From assembly GCA_043803765.1 (NCBI GenBank), contig JAZDJQ010000001.1, positions 32,150 to 96,149 of the forward strand: a stretch of 64,000 nucleotides of DNA, read 5' to 3'. This DNA comes from Candidatus Iainarchaeum sp. (lineage in GTDB: Archaea > Iainarchaeota > Iainarchaeia > Iainarchaeales > VGJJ01). Below, piece by piece: positions 16,756-27,837 of the stretch. Numbering within the stretch: the first letter of the stretch is position 1; every line of letters starts with the position of its first letter. The position numbers were made by a program, and so were the translations under genes. The notes below the pieces were generated by a model, which made no database searches, was not told the origin of the DNA, and worked only from the letters and a program-made list of their open reading frames with translations.

Positions 16756-16761
16756 TTTGTT

Positions 16762-16825
16762 ATTTTTTTCCCCGGGGTTTTTTCTGTGAAGAAAAAAGGC
16801 CGGTTCTGAATCCCTCTGGCCTCGT
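16762..16825 (+). repeat. Hairpin repeat unit plus copy of the tRNA-Lys(CTT) 3' end
   Basis: 16764-16802 is identical to 18004-18042; AATCCCTCTGGCCTCGT is repeated at 16809-16825. Confidence 0.85.
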
Positions 16826-17903: not shown

Positions 17904-17959
17904 TTCGTGCGTAATCTCGCGTGGTGAGGAAGTAAGGGTTTCTTTTCAGGAACCCAGAT

Positions 17960-18116
17960 TCCCGTGTTTTTTTTCTGGTTAGAAAAAGGCCGTTGCGTAG
18001 CCATTTTTTCCCCGGGGTTTTTTCTGTGAAGAAAAAAGGCCGTTGCGACAGCAATTTTTCCCCGGGGTTTTTGCCCAAAGGCAAAAAGGCCGGTTCTGAA
18101 TCCCACCGGCCTCGTT
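17960..18116 (+). repeat. Three tandem 50-bp hairpin units plus copy of the tRNA-Lys(TTT) 3' end
   Basis: AAAGGCCG at 17985, 18035 and 18085; AATCCCACCGGCCTCGTT is repeated at 18099-18116. Confidence 0.85.
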
Positions 18117-21070: not shown

Positions 21071-22297
21071 ATGAATCCTTTAACTGAGGTTCCATCTTTT
21101 GCTTTGAGTAATTTGACTCATCAGGGACTGCGTTCCTATCTTACATTGTTGGGCGTAGTCATTGGGATTGCGGCGATTGTTACTTTGTTTTCGTTAGGTT
21201 CCGGTCTCAATAATGCGGCGACGGAGCAATTTGAGAAACTAGGAAGCAATACTCTCTTCGTTGCTCCTGCGGGTTCTTCCGGCGCGGGGGGAAATGCCCC
21301 TAGTACGAATGTTAAGACTCTTTCTCAATCCACGGTTGATAAGATTAAGGCCATTCCTCAAGTGGAGTTGGTGTTGGCCCCATTAGCATCATCGGCAAGT
21401 ATTGCTTTTGGTCGTGAGGTGGTGCAGGCTTCTTTTATTGCAACTACCGCAGAAGAGGGGAAGGCGTTTGTAGATACGGGTTTTGTTGAATTGGATGAGG
21501 GTCGTGATTTGGAGAATAAGGATGTTTTTTCTGTTGTTGTTGGGAACACTCTTGCTAAGGATGCGTTTAGTAAAGAAATTCGTCTTGGTGATAAAATTGA
21601 TATTGAGGGTCATTCTTTCAGGGTGGTGGGTATTACTAAGGCGAATGCTCAATCCTTTGGTGGGGGTCCTAATACGAATAATACTATTTTTGGTACTAAG
21701 AAGGGGTTTAATCAATTGTTTGCTGAAACGAATCCTGTTTTTCTTTTGGTGAAAACCACTTCTCGTGATGATGTTGATTTGGTTAAGAGTAAAATTGATC
21801 GTCTGTTTGAATCGATTTATGGGAAAGACCAAAAAGTATTTGCCGTTGCTACAAGTGACCAGTTGCTTGAACAATTGGGCCAATTTTTGGCGATTATTCA
21901 ATTAGTGTTAGTAGGAATTGCGTCTATTTCTTTGCTTGTTGGCGGTATTGGTATTATGAATACGATGATTATGTCCGTGTTAGAGAGAACGAGTGAGATT
22001 GGGGTGATGAAGGCGATTGGGGCTACTAACACTCTTGTATTGAGTGTTTTTATTGCCGAAGCAGGTTTTATTGGTTTGGTTGGGGGTATTTTTGGTGTGC
22101 TGATTGGGTATGCTCTTGCATTTACCGTGGGTGCTATTTCGATTGCCTCGGGTCTTGCGTTAAGAGTAGAACTTGACCCTTTTCTTGTTGGGGGGTCTCT
22201 TCTTTTTGCTATGATTGTGGGAATGGTTTCAGGTCTTATTCCTGCACGAAGGGCGGCACGCATGGATCCGGTGGTGGCATTACGTGGAATTGAATAG
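21071..22297 (+). CDS. ABC permease, MacB/FtsX family
   Basis: RSYLTLLGVVIGIAAIV; VGGIGIMNTMIMSVLERTSEIG; PARRAARMDPV. Confidence 0.93.
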   Translation: MNPLTEVPSFALSNLTHQGLRSYLTLLGVVIGIAAIVTLFSLGSGLNNAATEQFEKLGSNTLFVAPAGSSGAGGNAPSTNVKTLSQSTVDKIKAIPQVELVLAPLASSASIAFGREVVQASFIATTAEEGKAFVDTGFVELDEGRDLENKDVFSVVVGNTLAKDAFSKEIRLGDKIDIEGHSFRVVGITKANAQSFGGGPNTNNTIFGTKKGFNQLFAETNPVFLLVKTTSRDDVDLVKSKIDRLFESIYGKDQKVFAVATSDQLLEQLGQFLAIIQLVLVGIASISLLVGGIGIMNTMIMSVLERTSEIGVMKAIGATNTLVLSVFIAEAGFIGLVGGIFGVLIGYALAFTVGAISIASGLALRVELDPFLVGGSLLFAMIVGMVSGLIPARRAARMDPVVALRGIE

Positions 22298-22333: not shown

Positions 22334-23557
22334 ATGAATCCAATAATGGAAGTTCCTTTATTCGCGTTGCGTAATTTGAAACAGCAGTCTCTTCGTTCCG
22401 CGCTCACGTTTTCGGGTGTCATCATTGGGGTGGCGGCTATTATTACATTGTTTACATTGTCAGCTGGTCTGAATGAGGTGGTTGAACAACAATTCGAGCA
22501 ATTAGGGAGCAATACGTTGTATGTTTTTCCTTCGGCTCTTTTTTCTGGAAGTGGAGTGTCTTCGATTAATCTCAAAACTCTTTCTGAGAGTACGCAGGAT
22601 AAAATAAGATTTGTTCCAGAGGTGCAGTCCGTGCTTCCGCAGGTGTATGCGCAGGGAACGATGCAGCAGGGAAAAGAAAAATCTCTTGTATACATTGTGG
22701 GTTCTTCTCCTTCGGATGTGCAGGACTACATGGATGCGGGTTTTCTTGTGGTAACAGAGGGGCGTATCTTTAAGTCAAATGAAACATTTTCTGTTTTGGT
22801 TGGGGAGGATCTCGTTGAAGACGCGTTCACCAATCCCATTCGTCTTGGAGGCAGTCTCATTATTGAGGGAAAATCATTCAAGGTAATCGGCTTCATGTCT
22901 CAGCCATCTAAGGTGGCAGGTGACCCCTCTTCTCCATCTAATTCTCTTATGATTTCAGACAAGGGGTTTGCACAGCTTTTTTCTCAAGTAGACCCGTTAT
23001 TTCTTCTCGTCAAGGTGAATACTGCATTGGATGTAACGCCGGCAAAAGAAAAAATCGAGCGAGTATTAGAGAAAGTGTATGGGAAGGACCAGCCTTATTT
23101 TTTAGTATACACGTCAGAGCAACTTCTTGATCAATTTAATCAATTGTTTGGGATTGTGCAGCTTGTTCTCATTGGAATTGCGTCTATTTCTTTGCTTGTA
23201 GGTGGTATTGGTATTATGAATACGATGATTATGTCCGTGTTAGAGAGAACGAGTGAGATTGGTCTCATGAAAGCAGTAGGTGCCACCGATACGCTCGTAT
23301 TGAGCGTTTTTCTTGCCGAAGCGGGCATTATTGGCTTAGTTGGAGGTATATTTGGTTTGATTATTGGGTATGCTCTTGCATTCGTGGTGAAAATCGTTGC
23401 AGATGCCTCGGGTTTTGGTTTAGTGATTGAGTTGGATCCTTTTCTTATCGTGGGGGGTTTGCTTTTTTCCATTCTTATTGGCATGCTTTCAGGTTACATT
23501 CCTTCTCGCAATGCCGCAAAAATGGACCCAGTAGTTGCCATGCGTGGAACGATTTAA
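22334..23557 (+). CDS. ABC permease, MacB/FtsX family (tandem paralog)
   Basis: Same motifs as the preceding gene. Confidence 0.93.
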   Translation: MNPIMEVPLFALRNLKQQSLRSALTFSGVIIGVAAIITLFTLSAGLNEVVEQQFEQLGSNTLYVFPSALFSGSGVSSINLKTLSESTQDKIRFVPEVQSVLPQVYAQGTMQQGKEKSLVYIVGSSPSDVQDYMDAGFLVVTEGRIFKSNETFSVLVGEDLVEDAFTNPIRLGGSLIIEGKSFKVIGFMSQPSKVAGDPSSPSNSLMISDKGFAQLFSQVDPLFLLVKVNTALDVTPAKEKIERVLEKVYGKDQPYFLVYTSEQLLDQFNQLFGIVQLVLIGIASISLLVGGIGIMNTMIMSVLERTSEIGLMKAVGATDTLVLSVFLAEAGIIGLVGGIFGLIIGYALAFVVKIVADASGFGLVIELDPFLIVGGLLFSILIGMLSGYIPSRNAAKMDPVVAMRGTI

Positions 23558-23608: not shown

Positions 23609-23682
23609 GGGGCTGTAGCTCAGCCTGGGAGAGCACATCGCTGAAGACGATGGTGTCGCGTGTTCAAATCACGCCAGCCCCA
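23609..23682 (+). tRNA. tRNA-Phe (GAA)
   Basis: Cloverleaf; CATCG-CTGAAGA-CGATG anticodon arm. Confidence 0.95.
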
Positions 23683-23897
23683 CTTATTTTCTATTTTGTT
23701 GATGCTGTTTTACGTGGAAGTCGATTTTGTCTCCATTTTTTTGGGGGGATTGTGCTTCTTTTTTTTGTTAGGATGTGCGGCGCATTCCATTACCTAGCTA
23801 TTTCGCTTTTTTTGAAATCGCATCCAGCAAAAATACCCTTGTCGCGGGTGGCGTTTTTCCCACGATTATGCGGGACATAAAAGACCGATGGACTAGT

Positions 23898-24008
23898 CTA
23901 TAGTTTTCCAATTGCTTCCAATAGTTTTCGGTGCGGTTTCACCAGCTTGTTGAACAGTTCAAACTCTTCCCTGACGATAGCCAATCGTTCCTTATCGCTT
24001 AAACGCAT
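23898..24008 (-). CDS. 36-aa putative antitoxin partner of the Fic/Doc protein
   Basis: Manual translation MRLSDKERLAIVREEFELFNKLVKPHRKLLEAIGKL; overlaps the 3' end of the Fic gene. Confidence 0.6.
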   Translation of the reverse strand: MRLSDKERLAIVREEFELFNKLVKPHRKLLEAIGKL

Positions 24009-24390
24009 TGATTTTTCCATGTTGTATCCACTCCTTGATTTCTTCGTCCGTATAATATCCCTCGCGTATTCCCGTCATGGTTTTGGCGTTGTCGGGATTG
24101 TCTGCAATGTTTGATTTAGCATTGTTCAGCGTTAAAAAATAAGTGGTCGCGAGTAGAGCCGTGCGTCGATTCCCGCTGGCAAATGCATGTTTTTGGATGA
24201 TTCCTTTCATCAAAATAACTGCCTTGTCATACGTATCTCCTTTCGTTTGTTCACAGTTTCGCAAAACTTCTCGTATTTTCGTCTCACTCAACACTTTGGG
24301 CGAGTCGGCCTTTTTGGCCTTCAACAGCATTAGCGCCAACAGGTTGAGTTCGATGATTTTCTCCACGGAAGGATAGCCAATCATATCCAT
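23992..24390 (-). CDS. Fic/Doc family toxin
   Basis: HAFASGNRRTA matches HxFxxGNxR. Confidence 0.9.
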   Translation of the reverse strand: MDMIGYPSVEKIIELNLLALMLLKAKKADSPKVLSETKIREVLRNCEQTKGDTYDKAVILMKGIIQKHAFASGNRRTALLATTYFLTLNNAKSNIADNPDNAKTMTGIREGYYTDEEIKEWIQHGKINAFKR

Positions 24391-24420
24391 TTTCCGGAAT
24401 GACTGCCTAAAAAAGGTATG

Positions 24421-24451
24421 GGTGTCGCGTGTTCAAATCACGCCAGCCCCA
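24421..24451 (+). repeat. att-like direct repeat of the tRNA-Phe 3' end
   Basis: Identical to 23652-23682. Confidence 0.92.
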
Positions 24452-24465
24452 TTTTTTTTCCTGAA

Positions 24466-24888
24466 TTAGTATTTCAATGGATCGATTCGTTTTATTCCTT
24501 GTACCTTGTCAAAATCCGTGTCGGCTGAAATGATTTCCTTGACATCATTTAGTTCCATTGTTGCCAAATGGATTCTGTCGGCGCCAAATAACGTGTTTTC
24601 ATACGTTGCGGCTTTCTTGATGGTGAATAAATCAGTATCTTGCCACGCGATAGGATAACTCATGAGTGCGTCCATATTTTTTGGCAAATCTAGCTCTCTT
24701 TCCTTTTGTCTTCTTTTTTCACTATTTATTTTTTGGATGACTCCAATCATTTCAATGAGGGTTAACTGTGATGACGTCACTTTTAGTTTTCCATTTTCAA
24801 TGTCTTCTAGGATTCTCGTGCATGCTTTGCCATACTTGTCGCTGTTTTCGATAGCGTACCCAAATATGTTGGTGTCAATATATTTCAT
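24466..24888 (-). CDS. vapC: PIN-domain toxin (VapC)
   Basis: YIDTNIF, TLIE, ADRIHLAT, IISADTDFD. Confidence 0.9.
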   Translation of the reverse strand: MKYIDTNIFGYAIENSDKYGKACTRILEDIENGKLKVTSSQLTLIEMIGVIQKINSEKRRQKERELDLPKNMDALMSYPIAWQDTDLFTIKKAATYENTLFGADRIHLATMELNDVKEIISADTDFDKVQGIKRIDPLKY

Positions 24889-25115
24889 AGGTTGGCTCGG
24901 ACATTTTTGATGAGATTCACCATGTCAATGTTCAATCGTACGTTTTGGGTGGTGAGAAATTTAGTGGGATTCTTAATCCGTTTGGGGGCGTCTACCAATA
25001 CTTTTCCTCCAACAATGTACCATTCAATCATCTGTCCGGGTTTGGCTCCGAGAAAATCGGCTATTCTCTTGGGCACGGTAGCCTGGCGCTTGCTCGTTAA
25101 AGTGGATTCATCCAT
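24885..25115 (-). CDS. AbrB/MazE-type antitoxin
   Basis: TLTSKRQATVPKRIADFLGAKPGQMIEW; ATGA overlap with vapC. Confidence 0.88.
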   Translation of the reverse strand: MDESTLTSKRQATVPKRIADFLGAKPGQMIEWYIVGGKVLVDAPKRIKNPTKFLTTQNVRLNIDMVNLIKNVRANL

Positions 25116-25120
25116 GTAAA

Positions 25121-25138
25121 AGTATTACCCGTAATACT
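25121..25138. promoter_or_regulatory. Operator palindrome of the abrB-vapC pair
   Basis: AGTATTAC-cc-GTAATACT lies between the TATA-like box and the ATG. Confidence 0.65.
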
Positions 25139-25308
25139 ATTTAACCTTTTGGGAGCCGTGCCGCCGCTGAAGTGTTCCGTGCATATCCAAATCACGCTAA
25201 TCCTATTTCTAAAATAACATATTATTCTATTTTCTTGTGTTTTGCATTTTTTTTGCAAATTATAAAGAGGACACTAAATAGAAATAGACAAGACCTTTGA
25301 GAGAACTA

Positions 25309-26259
25309 TTATTTGGCCGCAGATAATCGATTAGCCACTTCATTCTCGAGTCTCATGAGAATCAATCTAACGACAAATGCACTGTTCTGAAACTCGTGCC
25401 GGACATCGGCCGCCACCTCTTTCATCGGTCCGCTAATGACCCCCAAGCGATAAGTGTGTTGGCGCAGGATTGAACAACCTTTTTCAAGATCCTTTTGAGC
25501 TTCCTTCACCCTATAGCGAAGAGATTCATATTCTGTTTGCATTGGAGCATGGGAAAAATAATCATTAAATTGTTCAATGATATTTTTTCCGGCGTTCCTT
25601 CCTGTAGCTGAAAAAGAATCTACTAATTCCTCACATAACGGCGACGTGAAAACGCGCAAAAAATATCTCAAAGTACGACTGTCAGCTTCCTGTTTTGAAT
25701 ATTCTTTTCGAATGGCCGTCAAATCCGAGGCCAACATTGGCAACGTGATTCTCTCCAATCGAAGTTTTTGCGATTGTATACTCAAATCATGCAGATTTAT
25801 TGCGATAATGCCAATTTGGTTTTGCATGTTGTGACGAACGGTTGCGGTTTTAGCTGAAGATTTACTTATTGACTCCAAACTCCAAGTGAGTTTTTGTAGT
25901 CTATTTTGTGCTTCAAGGAGATCTTTTTGTCCATCAAAAACAGCCAATTCTAATTCACGCAAACGTTTCGTGGAATTTGAATCAGAACCTACAATCTCCT
26001 CCATCGAACGCCTAATGCCTGGGGAAGGAAAATATTGTGCATACAACTGCCTAAGCGAAGGAGAAGCAAACCGGCGGAGAAATAGTTCACGTTCATGCCA
26101 CGAACCATGTTCCCCCGTTTTCTTTTTTTTCCGACGAATGCGCATAATCTCTCGTGCAACCGTTGAAATCGTCGTTGGACGGTTTCGAATGGGCCCCATG
26201 TAATTTGTCCATTTAGACTTAATTTGCCGGCGCAATCTCGATAGGAATGAAGATGGCAT
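25309..26259 (-). CDS. Orphan helical/coiled-coil protein with basic N-terminus
   Basis: 316-aa ORF filling the gap; no recognised motif. Confidence 0.65.
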   Translation of the reverse strand: MPSSFLSRLRRQIKSKWTNYMGPIRNRPTTISTVAREIMRIRRKKKKTGEHGSWHERELFLRRFASPSLRQLYAQYFPSPGIRRSMEEIVGSDSNSTKRLRELELAVFDGQKDLLEAQNRLQKLTWSLESISKSSAKTATVRHNMQNQIGIIAINLHDLSIQSQKLRLERITLPMLASDLTAIRKEYSKQEADSRTLRYFLRVFTSPLCEELVDSFSATGRNAGKNIIEQFNDYFSHAPMQTEYESLRYRVKEAQKDLEKGCSILRQHTYRLGVISGPMKEVAADVRHEFQNSAFVVRLILMRLENEVANRLSAAK

Positions 26260-26367: not shown

Positions 26368-27837
26368 TTATTTAATGTTCCTCATCTGCGGGAAGAATAA
26401 TACGTCGCGGATCGTGGGCTGGTCGAGTAATAGCATCACCATTCGATCGATGCCGATTCCGAGTCCTCCCGTGGGGGGCATTCCGTATTCCATGGCGAGA
26501 ATAAAGTCCTCGTCTACGGGCATTTCTTCTCCTTTTGCTCTTCCTTCTTTTGCTTGTTTTTCAAGTAATTCGCGCTGTTTGAGTGCATCATTCAATTCCG
26601 AATACGCGTTGCTTATTTCCCATCCGTTGATGAATGATTCAAACCGCTCAATGAATCCTTTTTCGGTTCGGTGTTCTTTGCATAAGGGGGTTGTTTCATA
26701 CGGGTAATCGGTGAGGTGCGTGGGCTGGGTGAGGTGTTTTTCCGCTACGGCTTCGAATAATTCGTTGATGATTAATCCTCTTATTTTTGGGTTTTCCATT
26801 TTGTTTCCTGTTTTGGCAATCTCTTTGAGTAATTCGTCATCACTCAATTGGTCCACGTCAATGTCGGCGTATTTTTTGATTGCTTTTTTCATGGGGAGTC
26901 GCTCCCATTTTTCTCCCAAATCGAAGTCAACTCCTTGGTATGTGAATCGTTCGTTTCCGTGTACGGCCATGCATGCTTCACGGTATATTTCTTCGGTTAG
27001 TTTCATCATATCATGATAATCGGCATATGCCCAGTAGCATTCCATGCTCGTAAATTCCGGATTGTGTGTTTTATCAATGTCTTCGTTTCTGAAATTTTTT
27101 CCTATTGTGTATACTTTTTCCATGTTTCCAATCGTGAGTCGTTTCAGATACAATTCGGGTGATATGGATAAGTATAATTCTTGGTCGAGTGCATTGGATT
27201 GTGTGGTGAAGGGTCGTGCGTTTGCTCCTCCGTATTGTGTTTGCAGGGTGGGTATTTCTACTTCTACAAATCCTTGTCGATCTAACACGCGTCGTACTGC
27301 TTGAGTGATTTTGCTTCTTCCTACAAAAACACGTTTGACTTCTGGATTCATGAGTAAGTCCAAGTATCGTTGCCTATACCTTGCTTCGATATCGGATAGT
27401 CCATGCCATTTGTCGGGGAGTGGTGCAATGCTTTTTCCTAGTATTCCTATTTTTTCTGCTAGTATGCTTATTTCTCCTCGTTGTGTTCGTATTATTTTTC
27501 CTTCGGCGAACCCGTAATCTCCTGCGTCCAGCATTTCGATGAGTTCAAATCCTTCGGCGGGTGTTACTCCTGCTTTTAATTGTACTTGTATTTTTCCCGT
27601 ATCGTCCCACATGTCCAAGAATGCTAGTTTTCCAAATCCCCGTATGCTCATTATTTTTCCACAGATTTTTGCTTGTTCGTTGCTTTCTTCCCCATTTTGT
27701 AGTCCATTAAATTTTCTTTTTATTTCGCTTGCAGTGTGCGTTCGTGAATACTGATAAGGATAAGGATTGATTCCTTTCTCTTTGAGCGTTTTGAGTTTCT
27801 GTATTTTGCTCGTACGTAGTTCTTCAAACGTGGTCAT
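26368..27837 (-). CDS. lysS: Lysine--tRNA ligase, class II
   Basis: OB fold; RYRQRYLDL, GGANARPF, FRNE, HNPEFT, GMPPTGGLGIGIDR. Confidence 0.97.
   Translation of the reverse strand: MTTFEELRTSKIQKLKTLKEKGINPYPYQYSRTHTASEIKRKFNGLQNGEESNEQAKICGKIMSIRGFGKLAFLDMWDDTGKIQVQLKAGVTPAEGFELIEMLDAGDYGFAEGKIIRTQRGEISILAEKIGILGKSIAPLPDKWHGLSDIEARYRQRYLDLLMNPEVKRVFVGRSKITQAVRRVLDRQGFVEVEIPTLQTQYGGANARPFTTQSNALDQELYLSISPELYLKRLTIGNMEKVYTIGKNFRNEDIDKTHNPEFTSMECYWAYADYHDMMKLTEEIYREACMAVHGNERFTYQGVDFDLGEKWERLPMKKAIKKYADIDVDQLSDDELLKEIAKTGNKMENPKIRGLIINELFEAVAEKHLTQPTHLTDYPYETTPLCKEHRTEKGFIERFESFINGWEISNAYSELNDALKQRELLEKQAKEGRAKGEEMPVDEDFILAMEYGMPPTGGLGIGIDRMVMLLLDQPTIRDVLFFPQMRNIK

Follow-up and report, generated by a model that had tools for sequence, protein, structure and literature searches.

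Insertion of restriction-modification gene units with long target duplication was reportedly described by Nobusato et al. in 2000. Such units in bacteria contain no recombinase and are flanked by long repeats of variable length that are present in a single copy at the empty site, and the study that surveyed them gives the mechanism as unknown (PMC2853133). In many cases the repeats include part of a tRNA or of the 3' end of the gene next to them, and Furuta, Abe and Kobayashi proposed in 2010 that the units have a 'virus-like' life cycle that runs through these repeats (PMC2853133). According to that study, no archaeal case passed its screen (PMC2853133). Here we describe two toxin-antitoxin (TA) units that lie one behind the other at the tRNA-Phe gene of Candidatus Iainarchaeum sp., each closed by a copy of the tRNA 3' end. 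They are located in a stretch of 64,000 nt (the window; positions 32150-96149 of contig C1) of the analysed genome, G000, which comprises 1.02 Mb in 19 contigs. The record titles of related loci agree with a placement of the organism within the DPANN archaea (Iainarchaeota/Diapherotrites).

Insertion with long target duplication is the closest known case, as it too involves an addiction-type unit, without a mobility gene, between direct repeats of the target end. At the loci described here the repeats enclose an addiction unit and no other mobile-element gene, and repeats of variable length exceeding 30 bp are found, the window locus being borderline in this respect (31 nt exact, 38/40 over the longer match). 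However, the known cases are restriction-modification genes in bacteria, whereas these are type II TA modules in DPANN archaea, and the units are smaller (approximately 0.6–0.8 kb). A literature search, with subscription journals largely outside it, found no paper on type II TA modules or DPANN archaea in this mode of insertion.

Elements stacked in tandem at one tRNA or transfer-messenger RNA gene, with partial copies of its 3' end between them, are described at ssrA in Dehalococcoides (PMC3146451), in the tycheposon islands of Prochlorococcus (bioRxiv 10.1101/2020.12.28.424599) and in archaeal arrays (PMC6563490). In these and related reports, the smallest thaumarchaeal element is 2.6 kb and has an integrase (PMC6563490), and tRNA fragments are said to remain after integration (PMC9897764). 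The window locus is bordered on one side by an intact tRNA and on the other by a partial direct repeat of the tRNA 3' end, the layout of a tRNA-targeting integrative element or tandem array, and its att-like flanks with no recombination or transfer genes between them are those of a cis-mobilisable element. The locus also resembles the arrays in the partial copies between units, in the apparent outward displacement of older units by newer ones, in the integrase-less state of some members and in a small, streamlined host. It differs from them in scale and in kind: the arrays consist of elements of kilobases to tens of kilobases that belong to a recombinase-defined family, whereas the present units are approximately 0.75 kb, hold a TA pair only and have no identified cognate recombinase.

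TA cassettes stabilise large chromosomal integrons, and the locus shares with integron arrays its gene-sized units and the site that recurs between them. However, it has no IntI, attI or attC, the boundaries are copies of target-gene ends, and the units seem to have their own promoters. The term 'integron-like', which had been applied to the locus in a first-pass annotation, is thus an analogy only. The Xer-dependent dif modules of Acinetobacter plasmids measure from less than 1 kb to a few kilobases, include several TA pairs and are bounded by core sites of approximately 28 bp on which a host recombinase acts in trans. Their sites are dif-like and the same everywhere, whereas the bounding repeats described here vary with the target gene, and no XerA site was identified, although no dif site was sought.

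Two units closed by copies of the tRNA-Phe end

The intact tRNA-Phe(GAA) gene occupies positions 23609-23683 on the + strand (ARAGORN; Rfam tRNA, 64.8 bits), and its last 31 nt (23652-23682) constitute copy 1 of the repeat. Unit 1 is closed by copy 2 (24421-24451, + strand), an exact copy of this 31-nt end. Unit 2 is closed by copy 3 (25165-25208, + strand), a decayed tRNA-Phe 3' half from the anticodon loop onward. In a repeat search the match between copies 1 and 2 extends to 40 nt (23652-23691 and 24421-24460), of which 38 are identical and the first 31 exact, with a start-to-start distance of 769 nt. A whole-genome k-mer survey places the 31-mer at two sites only, the tRNA and copy 2. Viewed as single-stranded DNA, copy 2 is an imperfect 13-nt inverted repeat around the 7-nt T-loop.

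Aligned without gaps, copy 3 corresponds to 25181-25208, at a spacing of 754 nt, and is identical to copy 2 at 21 of 28 positions and to the tRNA at 20 of 28. A match of at least 21/28 is reached at only 6 of 2,044,594 genome positions (both strands), namely the tRNA, copy 2, copy 3, the T-arms of two other tRNAs and one site on contig C17, and the probability of copy 3 arising by chance in its spacer of approximately 100 nt is about 1e-4. Gapped alignment extends copy 3 back to the anticodon-loop letters CGCTGAAG at 25165. Under +2/-3 local alignment just a 10-nt exact core is left, a 40-mer comparison gives 21–22/40, and Rfam makes no tRNA call at this position. We take copy 3 to be real but old. 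The succession of tRNA-Phe, Doc unit, exact 31-nt copy, VapC/AbrB pair and third copy had been read from the letters in the first-pass annotation, and it is borne out by ARAGORN, Rfam, Pfam and the repeat search; the significance of the third repeat, on which that reading had been made to depend, follows from the rarity of its 21/28 match.

Genes of the two units

The repeats enclose genes for Doc, its small partner orf40, a PIN toxin and an AbrB-type antitoxin, together with the remnant of a SET-domain gene, and no recombinase lies between them. As had been stated from the outset, the units are gene-sized, lack a recombinase and run antisense to the tRNA. They are also compact: the PIN stop codon is 15 nt and the Doc start 30 nt from copy 2, and the antitoxin start is 50 nt from copy 3. 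No anomaly in GC content was seen across both units.

Unit 1 contains a Doc (death-on-curing, Fic fold) toxin gene at 23992-24390 on the - strand, with a likely start at 24384. Its product matches Pfam Fic (8e-8, 33.5 bits; cut-off 24) and the death-on-curing protein 9vzc_A in the PDB (E 1.4e-4), and it scores just below the cut-off of TIGR01550 DOC_P1 (36.4 bits against 38.65). The active-site loop FASGNRRT is invariant across 17 aligned sequences. Next to the toxin, and overlapping its 3' end by 29 nt, is orf40 (23898-24020, - strand), whose 40-residue product is the putative antitoxin on account of the conserved linkage. The 36-residue open reading frame (ORF) of the first-pass annotation is real and conserved; it is this longer frame read from its second ATG. 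The toxin resembles Doc of the Phd-Doc system of phage P1 in its Doc-type Fic fold and H-x-F-x-x-G-N-[KR]-R loop (HAFASGNRR here). However, the gene order is reversed, with the toxin first, and the putative 40-residue partner has no detectable similarity to Phd, nor any match in Pfam, NCBIfam or the PDB.

The SET-domain remnant (23684-~23880, - strand), which has an internal deletion and an in-frame stop, fills the stretch from the tRNA towards orf40. The SET proteins of two congeners, G008 and G013, match window positions 23736-23858 (tblastn, E 5e-7 and 3e-5, one stop), and DNA similarity to G008 extends 57 nt beyond the tRNA. The description of unit 1 as a clean cassette does not hold, as this decayed pseudogene lies inside it and an intact form is found at the same place in both congeners.

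Unit 2 consists of a VapC-type PIN toxin gene at 24466-24888 (- strand; Pfam PIN 1e-12, 49.1 bits, cut-off 23.6) and an AbrB/MazE-fold antitoxin gene at 24885-25115 (- strand). The antitoxin just misses the cut-off of Pfam MazE_antitoxin (6.5e-5, 23.2 bits against 24.7) and matches TIGR01439 AbrB at 3e-4. The antitoxin gene comes first and overlaps the start of the PIN gene by 4 nt, the VapBC layout of a small DNA-binding antitoxin gene followed by a toxin gene across an overlapping stop and start. Between the antitoxin start and copy 3, the sequence contains a perfect 8-nt inverted repeat with a 2-nt spacer (25121-25138, no strand assigned), which may be an operator inside a promoter region belonging to unit 2. 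An A/T-rich box is found upstream of each unit, related Doc modules have a TATA-like box approximately 25–30 nt before the start, and each unit appears to have its own promoter.

Beyond copy 3, a short, T-rich stretch (25220-25244, + strand) resembles the 3' end of the SET gene that lies behind tRNA-Phe in G008 and G013. As a leftover of the original SET flank it is suggestive only.

The tRNA-Phe/lysS interval in congeners

In twelve congeners the permease, tRNA-Phe, a variable gap, lysyl-tRNA synthetase (LysRS) and KaiC are found in this order in one piece; in three more the contig breaks at or just after tRNA-Phe. The gap between tRNA-Phe and LysRS measures 31 bp in G015 and 388, 396, 468, 703, 796, 801, 870, 941, 1223, 1371 and 1571 bp in the others, compared with 2688 bp in G000. 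G015 is an empty site, with nothing behind tRNA-Phe, and the other eleven congeners carry other cargo, which starts no more than a few nucleotides from the last base of the tRNA in every case. Each of the twelve has a single tRNA-Phe 3' end here, so that the repeat is single-copy at the empty site, as in insertion with long target duplication. The interval is an insertion hot spot.

The cargo consists of SET genes in two congeners, unrelated membrane or orphan ORFs in seven and a PIN_2 pair in G006 and G011. The SET genes of G008 and G013 are intact (Pfam SET, 50–51 bits) and are the sole genes between tRNA-Phe and lysS. In G011 a PIN_2 toxin gene and a small upstream gene directly follow the tRNA and are succeeded by a decayed copy of its end (20/27). 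For the related pair in G006 the similarity to the tRNA end is weak and not significant (score 9), and in G005 one of the orphan ORFs is accompanied by a hairpin insert that contains a 16-nt tRNA-end copy. The 17 gap ORFs tested include no integrase, and no large element was seen in any of the twelve congeners. The comparison across strains that had been proposed for this site gives gaps of 31 bp (empty) to 1.6 kb with unrelated cargo, and the single large ancestral element whose discovery was to have told against separate units does not appear in the genomes searched.

Searches for the 31-mer with one free base gave six matches in metagenome contigs, all of them in tRNA-Phe genes of other species and none nearer to G000. 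The same search found no match in viral contigs that could represent an attP-bearing element, and the Doc profile matched one viral contig at 48% identity. Two sequencing runs (shares 0.07 and 0.05) had thin coverage and yielded a few short contigs and no joints, two of the contigs being identical to the window over 23908-24126 and 23369-23546.

The conserved flanks of the interval are an FtsX-type ABC permease gene on the left (22334-23557, + strand), which tblastn places upstream of tRNA-Phe in the congener loci, and the lysyl-tRNA synthetase gene lysS on the right (26368-27837, - strand), which is 66–83% identical to its counterparts and next in line in the twelve congeners. Two tandem FtsX-type permease genes, at 21071-22297 and 22334-23557, are 55% identical to each other, and congeners have one or two of them before tRNA-Phe. 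Between copy 3 and lysS lies orf316 (25309-26259, - strand), an orphan ORF for which there was no tblastn match in the congener loci, no Pfam family and no usable Atlas match. The variable region reaches further than the first-pass annotation had supposed, continuing past copy 3 with orf316.

The Doc module in DPANN archaea

Doc homologues with 56–65% identity were found in 29 of the 121 genomes sampled from the order, compared with none of 10 sampled congeners. In 17 of 18 loci Doc is succeeded by an orf40 homologue that overlaps it in the same way; the eighteenth locus ends too early. The partner is present in 71 of 80 further DPANN loci. Alignment of the orf40 family reveals 12 invariant columns. 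The sequences thus point to an undescribed family of 40-residue Doc partners, spread over DPANN lineages, with a toxin-first (reversed) gene order.

In one other genus the Doc module occupies the same site in two species, with 80% DNA identity across flanks and module. In a third species of that genus Doc has been deleted and the module is cut to an 86-nt piece of the partner gene at that site, and in a fourth the module lies at a different site with similarity restricted to the coding region. Judged by this distribution, the Doc module is a discrete unit and is foreign to the genus of G000. The PIN family of the window itself occurs in 7 of the 121 genomes and is too rare for a census of repeats. 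The best homologue (G016, 50%) lies beside tRNA-Pro, and no repeat is detectable there.

Repeats bracketing toxin-antitoxin modules

Each locus was scored by its best direct repeat with one copy at most 400 nt upstream and the other at most 400 nt downstream of the module, and a score of at least 18 was counted as positive. The loci compared represent one per species, yet they are mutually related. In the order-level sample of 121 genomes, 6 of 16 Doc loci scored at least 18, against 9 of 2000 random G000 segments and 8 of 2000 segments in the loci of relatives. The wider sample comprised 80 further Doc loci from DPANN genomes, 65 of them with full flanks. Here 16 of the 65 were positive compared with 2 of 118 control segments from the same loci (Fisher p = 1.3e-6, which overstates independence because the loci are related). 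Four pairs of loci share a repeat sequence between the samples (L097 with L049, L100 with L053, L127 with L059, L155 with L058), so that 4 of the 16 wider positives probably come from the same species as 4 of the 6 order-level positives. With three short-flank loci added to the 16, there are 19 repeat-positive loci in all.

The repeats are 19–251 nt long with 0–8 mismatches and mostly recur with a period of 560–720 nt. Eleven of the 19 loci have 0–1 mismatch, and a score of at least 25 was reached in 12 of the 65 full-flank loci. The Doc units are lone modules of approximately 0.6 kb, and in most repeat-positive loci the distance from the gene pair to either repeat is approximately 0–110 nt. 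At 8 of the 19 loci a long gene runs in the same direction as Doc and its 3' end forms the repeat, with the stop codon between -1 and +12 nt from the end of the repeat. At L150 the repeat consists of the last 13 nt of tRNA-Glu and 66 nt of flank, and at L054 it is the end of a tRNA; this tRNA is antisense to the unit, as tRNA-Phe is in the window. The neighbours at eight repeat-positive loci are housekeeping genes (ThyX, Pus10, M29 peptidase, UPP synthase, NifU/IscS and others). Integrases are missing from the 22 ORFs that neighbour these eight units, and one IS200-type transposase lies nearby at one locus. For PIN_2 pairs of the family seen in G006 and G011, bracketing repeats were found in 3 of 28 loci, and their ends are again at stop codons.

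In four loci the stop codon of the target gene lies beyond the identical block. At L116 both copies encode SSR-stop but differ in each of the three sense codons and in the stop codon, and at L155 both encode E-stop, as GAATAG and GAGTAA. The tails at L121 read VV-stop and VM-stop, and those at L164 are of equal length with different residues. These tails indicate that some units bring their own diverged, still-coding version of the target end. Such copies would be homologous arms carried before insertion; plain target-site duplication is disfavoured because unrelated insert sequence would be expected after the first copy. The synonymous, diverged target ends that follow some repeats thus set these units apart from insertion with long target duplication and point to an incoming arm instead of a duplicated target.

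The repeats of an orthologous unit at L049 (G087, 19/19) and L059 (G077, 30/30) are identical within each genome and differ between the genomes as the surrounding DNA does. Identity within a genome suggests continuing exchange between the copies, or hints at repeated re-insertion.

Recombinases and other tRNA-linked inserts

A search of the whole genome with PF00589 gave three matches, none in or beside the tRNA-Phe locus. The corresponding tyrosine recombinases are XerA in the window, a 451-residue integrase on C17 and the integrase of a tRNA-Met element on C14. The chromosomal XerA gene (2003-2887; NF040815, 272.6 bits, cut-off 220) is 21 kb from the tRNA-Phe locus. It lies 2 kb from the 3' end of the tRNA-Met gene at 4864-4934. 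A tRNA-Phe-like stretch beside the C17 integrase gene (18/21 identical) is inside an ORF and was treated as chance.

A survey of tRNAs for short inserts bounded by their own ends, which the first-pass annotation had recommended, found 3'-end copies downstream of 10 of the 46 tRNAs in G000. The inserts behind tRNA-Lys(CTT) and tRNA-Lys(TTT) (window 16757-16823 and 17904-18115) contain no genes; in each, one to three A/T-stem hairpins (CCCCGGGG-T6...A6-GGCCGG) precede GGTTCTGAATC and a 16–17-nt copy of the 3' end of the tRNA itself. They had been cited as a parallel to the tRNA-Phe locus, and as gene-less hairpin inserts they are a different thing. Similar inserts, some with the same hairpin types, are present elsewhere in G000 behind tRNA-Leu(CAG), Arg(TCT), Pro(CGG), Ala(GGC) and Val(TAC) and behind tRNA-Phe in the congener G005. 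The motif GCCGGTTCTGAATC occurs three times in the genome, always at hairpin inserts, and is absent from 205 fetched loci. These inserts may be miniature elements or att-side leftovers; they are not gene cassettes. A tRNA beside the Doc unit of G018 (L054:2022-2150), which was not called by an ARAGORN run without intron search, appears to hold an intron-like insert with an A/T-stem hairpin that by eye is like those of the G000 mini-inserts.

The tRNA-Tyr array of G000 (C12:129363-135874) has four units, which measure 2.2, 2.4, 0.95 and 0.83 kb and all end in a 14–17-nt copy of the tRNA end. It contains no integrase, and its cargo includes a 330-residue Fic protein, a UDG-like protein, a HicAB pair (in the 946-bp unit) and another small toxin-antitoxin-like pair. 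Units 1 and 4 have 46 further nucleotides in common beyond the tRNA copy. On C17 (15901-16548), a perfect 59-nt direct repeat with a period of 589 nt brackets a 122-residue Cys-rich secreted ORF approximately 1 kb from the integrase gene. Genome-wide there are 46 pairs of exact direct repeats of at least 16 nt spaced by 250–6000 nt, and all but the tRNA stacks and the 59-nt C17 pair are paralogues or within-gene repeats.

A model for insertion and persistence

The locus anatomy, the congener sites that are empty or hold other cargo, the excess of bracketing repeats and the diverged target-end copies are established observations, and from them we infer a circular form, a route by homologous recombination, an order of events and a role for addiction. 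The explanation we favour, tentatively and with confidence somewhat short of even, is that the TA units were inserted through a carried copy of the target 3' end and are retained by addiction. Two independent type II TA units, one of Doc and its 40-residue partner and one of VapC and an AbrB-type antitoxin, would have entered successively inside the 3' part of the tRNA. Each would have arrived as a small circle containing the gene pair and a copy of the target 3' end. A single Campbell-type crossover in the shared stretch, carried out by host homologous recombination, would rebuild the tRNA from the incoming copy and push the former tRNA 3' end to the far side of the unit, where it would be free to decay. 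Host homologous recombination is favoured, though not decisively, over a site-specific enzyme because the identical block is variable in length, the targets are many and unrelated, and no recombinase lies at the units.

Inserts flanked by repeats should be unstable, because the repeats can recombine and excise the unit. A unit that pops out in this way would be lost, and the survivors would be those whose loss kills the cell; persistence only where loss is lethal would explain why small units hold addiction modules.

Originally SET may have stood behind tRNA-Phe, as it does in G008 and G013. Of the two units, VapC/AbrB would have come in first and turned the tRNA 3' half into copy 3, beyond which a trace of the SET end would remain. 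The Doc unit would have entered later, with a SET remnant picked up at the same locus of a donor, and the end it displaced would be copy 2. Under this order copy 3 would be an old copy, and copy 2 either a recent one or one still subject to homogenisation. Sequential addition with the distal repeat older had already been proposed from the letters, and the proximal copy at 31/31, the distal one at 21/28 and the empty site of G015 support it. Stepwise insertion at the intact tRNA, each new unit moving the older ones outward, agrees with this gradient of decay. The exact copy 2 beside a much-decayed pseudogene may likewise reflect exchange between the copies, or else unit 1 may have arrived recently and carried the pseudogene in.

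Several observations weigh against insertion through a carried homology arm. The identity of 31 nt is short for homologous recombination, and the block has the size and symmetry of a tyrosine-recombinase core site. Unit 1, with its SET pseudogene, is not a minimal or clean cassette. The model does not explain how a unit gains the arm for a new target. A bracketing repeat is absent from 49 of the 65 full-flank Doc loci, the relatedness of the loci inflates the statistical contrast, and the four repeat sequences shared between the samples are taken to come from the same species. Three genomes of the family that has the ThyX-linked Doc unit were searched for its empty site and yielded none. Nor did we find a strain close enough to time the events, as LysRS of the congeners is 66–83% identical and a metagenome scan came no closer, and no circular form, empty-site read or excision junction was seen in sequencing runs that are too thin to speak for or against mobility.

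Alternative explanations

The units might instead be att-flanked, cis-mobilisable elements that were moved or accreted in trans by a tyrosine recombinase encoded elsewhere, such as the C14 or C17 integrase or XerA, as Xer-dependent dif modules are; a recombinase acting in trans had been proposed in the first-pass annotation. The 31-nt repeat, an imperfect 11–13-nt inverted repeat around the 7-nt T-loop, has the shape of a core site, and the blocks of identity begin in the variable or anticodon loop and extend to the 3' end of the tRNA, which is classical for tRNA-targeting integrases. G000 encodes three tyrosine recombinases and has integrase-borne stacks at tRNA-Met in which repeats are seen. 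Integrases that target gene ends also carry long replacement ends, and integrase-less array members are reported at ssrA of Dehalococcoides (PMC3146451) and in the Prochlorococcus islands (bioRxiv 10.1101/2020.12.28.424599). However, one Doc module is associated with many unrelated targets (protein-gene ends, tRNA-Glu with 66 nt of flank; 19–251 nt), which would call for a matching specific recombinase for each target and is less economical than a homology arm. There is also no space within the units for arm-type sites, the 22 neighbouring ORFs include no integrase, and the lack of viral-contig matches to the 31-mer leaves no attP-bearing element. We regard recombination in trans as a serious candidate, if a somewhat unlikely one. 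Another candidate origin is from two ordinary integrase-bearing elements that integrated at tRNA-Phe and were whittled down by the deletion bias of a reduced genome. The TA genes would have been kept because losing them kills the cell, and chance would have preserved the att copies. Erosion is evidently active here, as the decayed SET pseudogene in unit 1 attests, Doc has been deleted in another genus where an 86-nt piece of the partner is left, and the tRNA-Met stack of G000 contains older eroded layers. Work on tRNA islands likewise describes degenerate elements and scattered partial tRNAs (bioRxiv 10.1101/2020.12.28.424599). Yet neither a large element nor an integrase is present at the site in the twelve congeners, and lone Doc units lie among housekeeping genes with repeats approximately 0–110 nt away and periods clustered at 560–720 nt, whereas independent deletions should not recur so often. 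The many perfect or near-perfect repeats (0–1 mismatch in 11/19) point to recent events and not to long erosion, and we consider whittled remnants improbable.

The locus has the general look of a dedicated, integron-like capture platform, with gene-sized units in one orientation and a repeated site between them, and this look is all that speaks for one. Such a platform would have a resident recombinase, promoterless cassettes and a fixed site behind the tRNA served by a common promoter. No recombinase gene is adjacent, XerA being the nearest at 21 kb; the boundaries are tRNA-end copies and not attC-type sites; each unit has an A/T-rich box, with an inverted repeat in unit 2; the units are read towards the tRNA and not away from a platform promoter; and the same modules are found singly at many other genes. 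A platform of this kind is hardly credible. Nor is it necessary that anything was inserted, if the repeats arose by local duplication or slippage or if copy 3 is a chance match, as its weakness under strict scoring and at 40-mer length could suggest. This is very improbable in view of a 31-mer that is exact and unique to two places, a copy 3 that lies on the right strand, in the right spacer and in register with a score reached at only six positions of the genome, and cargo that is foreign to the genus and missing from the empty G015 site.

Implications

The interest of these units lies mainly in the family-wide pattern of repeats and less in the single locus. If they are eroded remnants or are moved by an ordinary integrase, the locus would be no more than one further tRNA island, in a lineage that has received little study. 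We are more hesitant about a wider generalization of insertion through a carried arm, which is possible though doubtful: that TA pairs of DPANN archaea, and perhaps of other ultra-small prokaryotes, are minimal selfish integrative elements of approximately 0.6–0.8 kb. Such an element would consist of an addiction module, a promoter and a short copy of the target 3' end, without a recombinase. It would pop in and out via its own repeat, spread among relatives through the same gene end and be kept since its loss kills, and stacks would result from repeated strikes on a favoured target.

Units that move without an enzyme of their own, as an addiction module with a homology arm, would be about the simplest integrative elements conceivable. 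If the model is correct, it would account for the spread and persistence of TA modules in the smallest genomes of archaea, where classical mobile elements are few, and for the gathering of small foreign genes at tRNA ends and at the 3' ends of conserved genes. It would also explain why repeat-flanked inserts so often hold addiction modules. The puzzle of long target duplication would then extend from the restriction-modification genes of bacteria to another addiction system and another domain of life.

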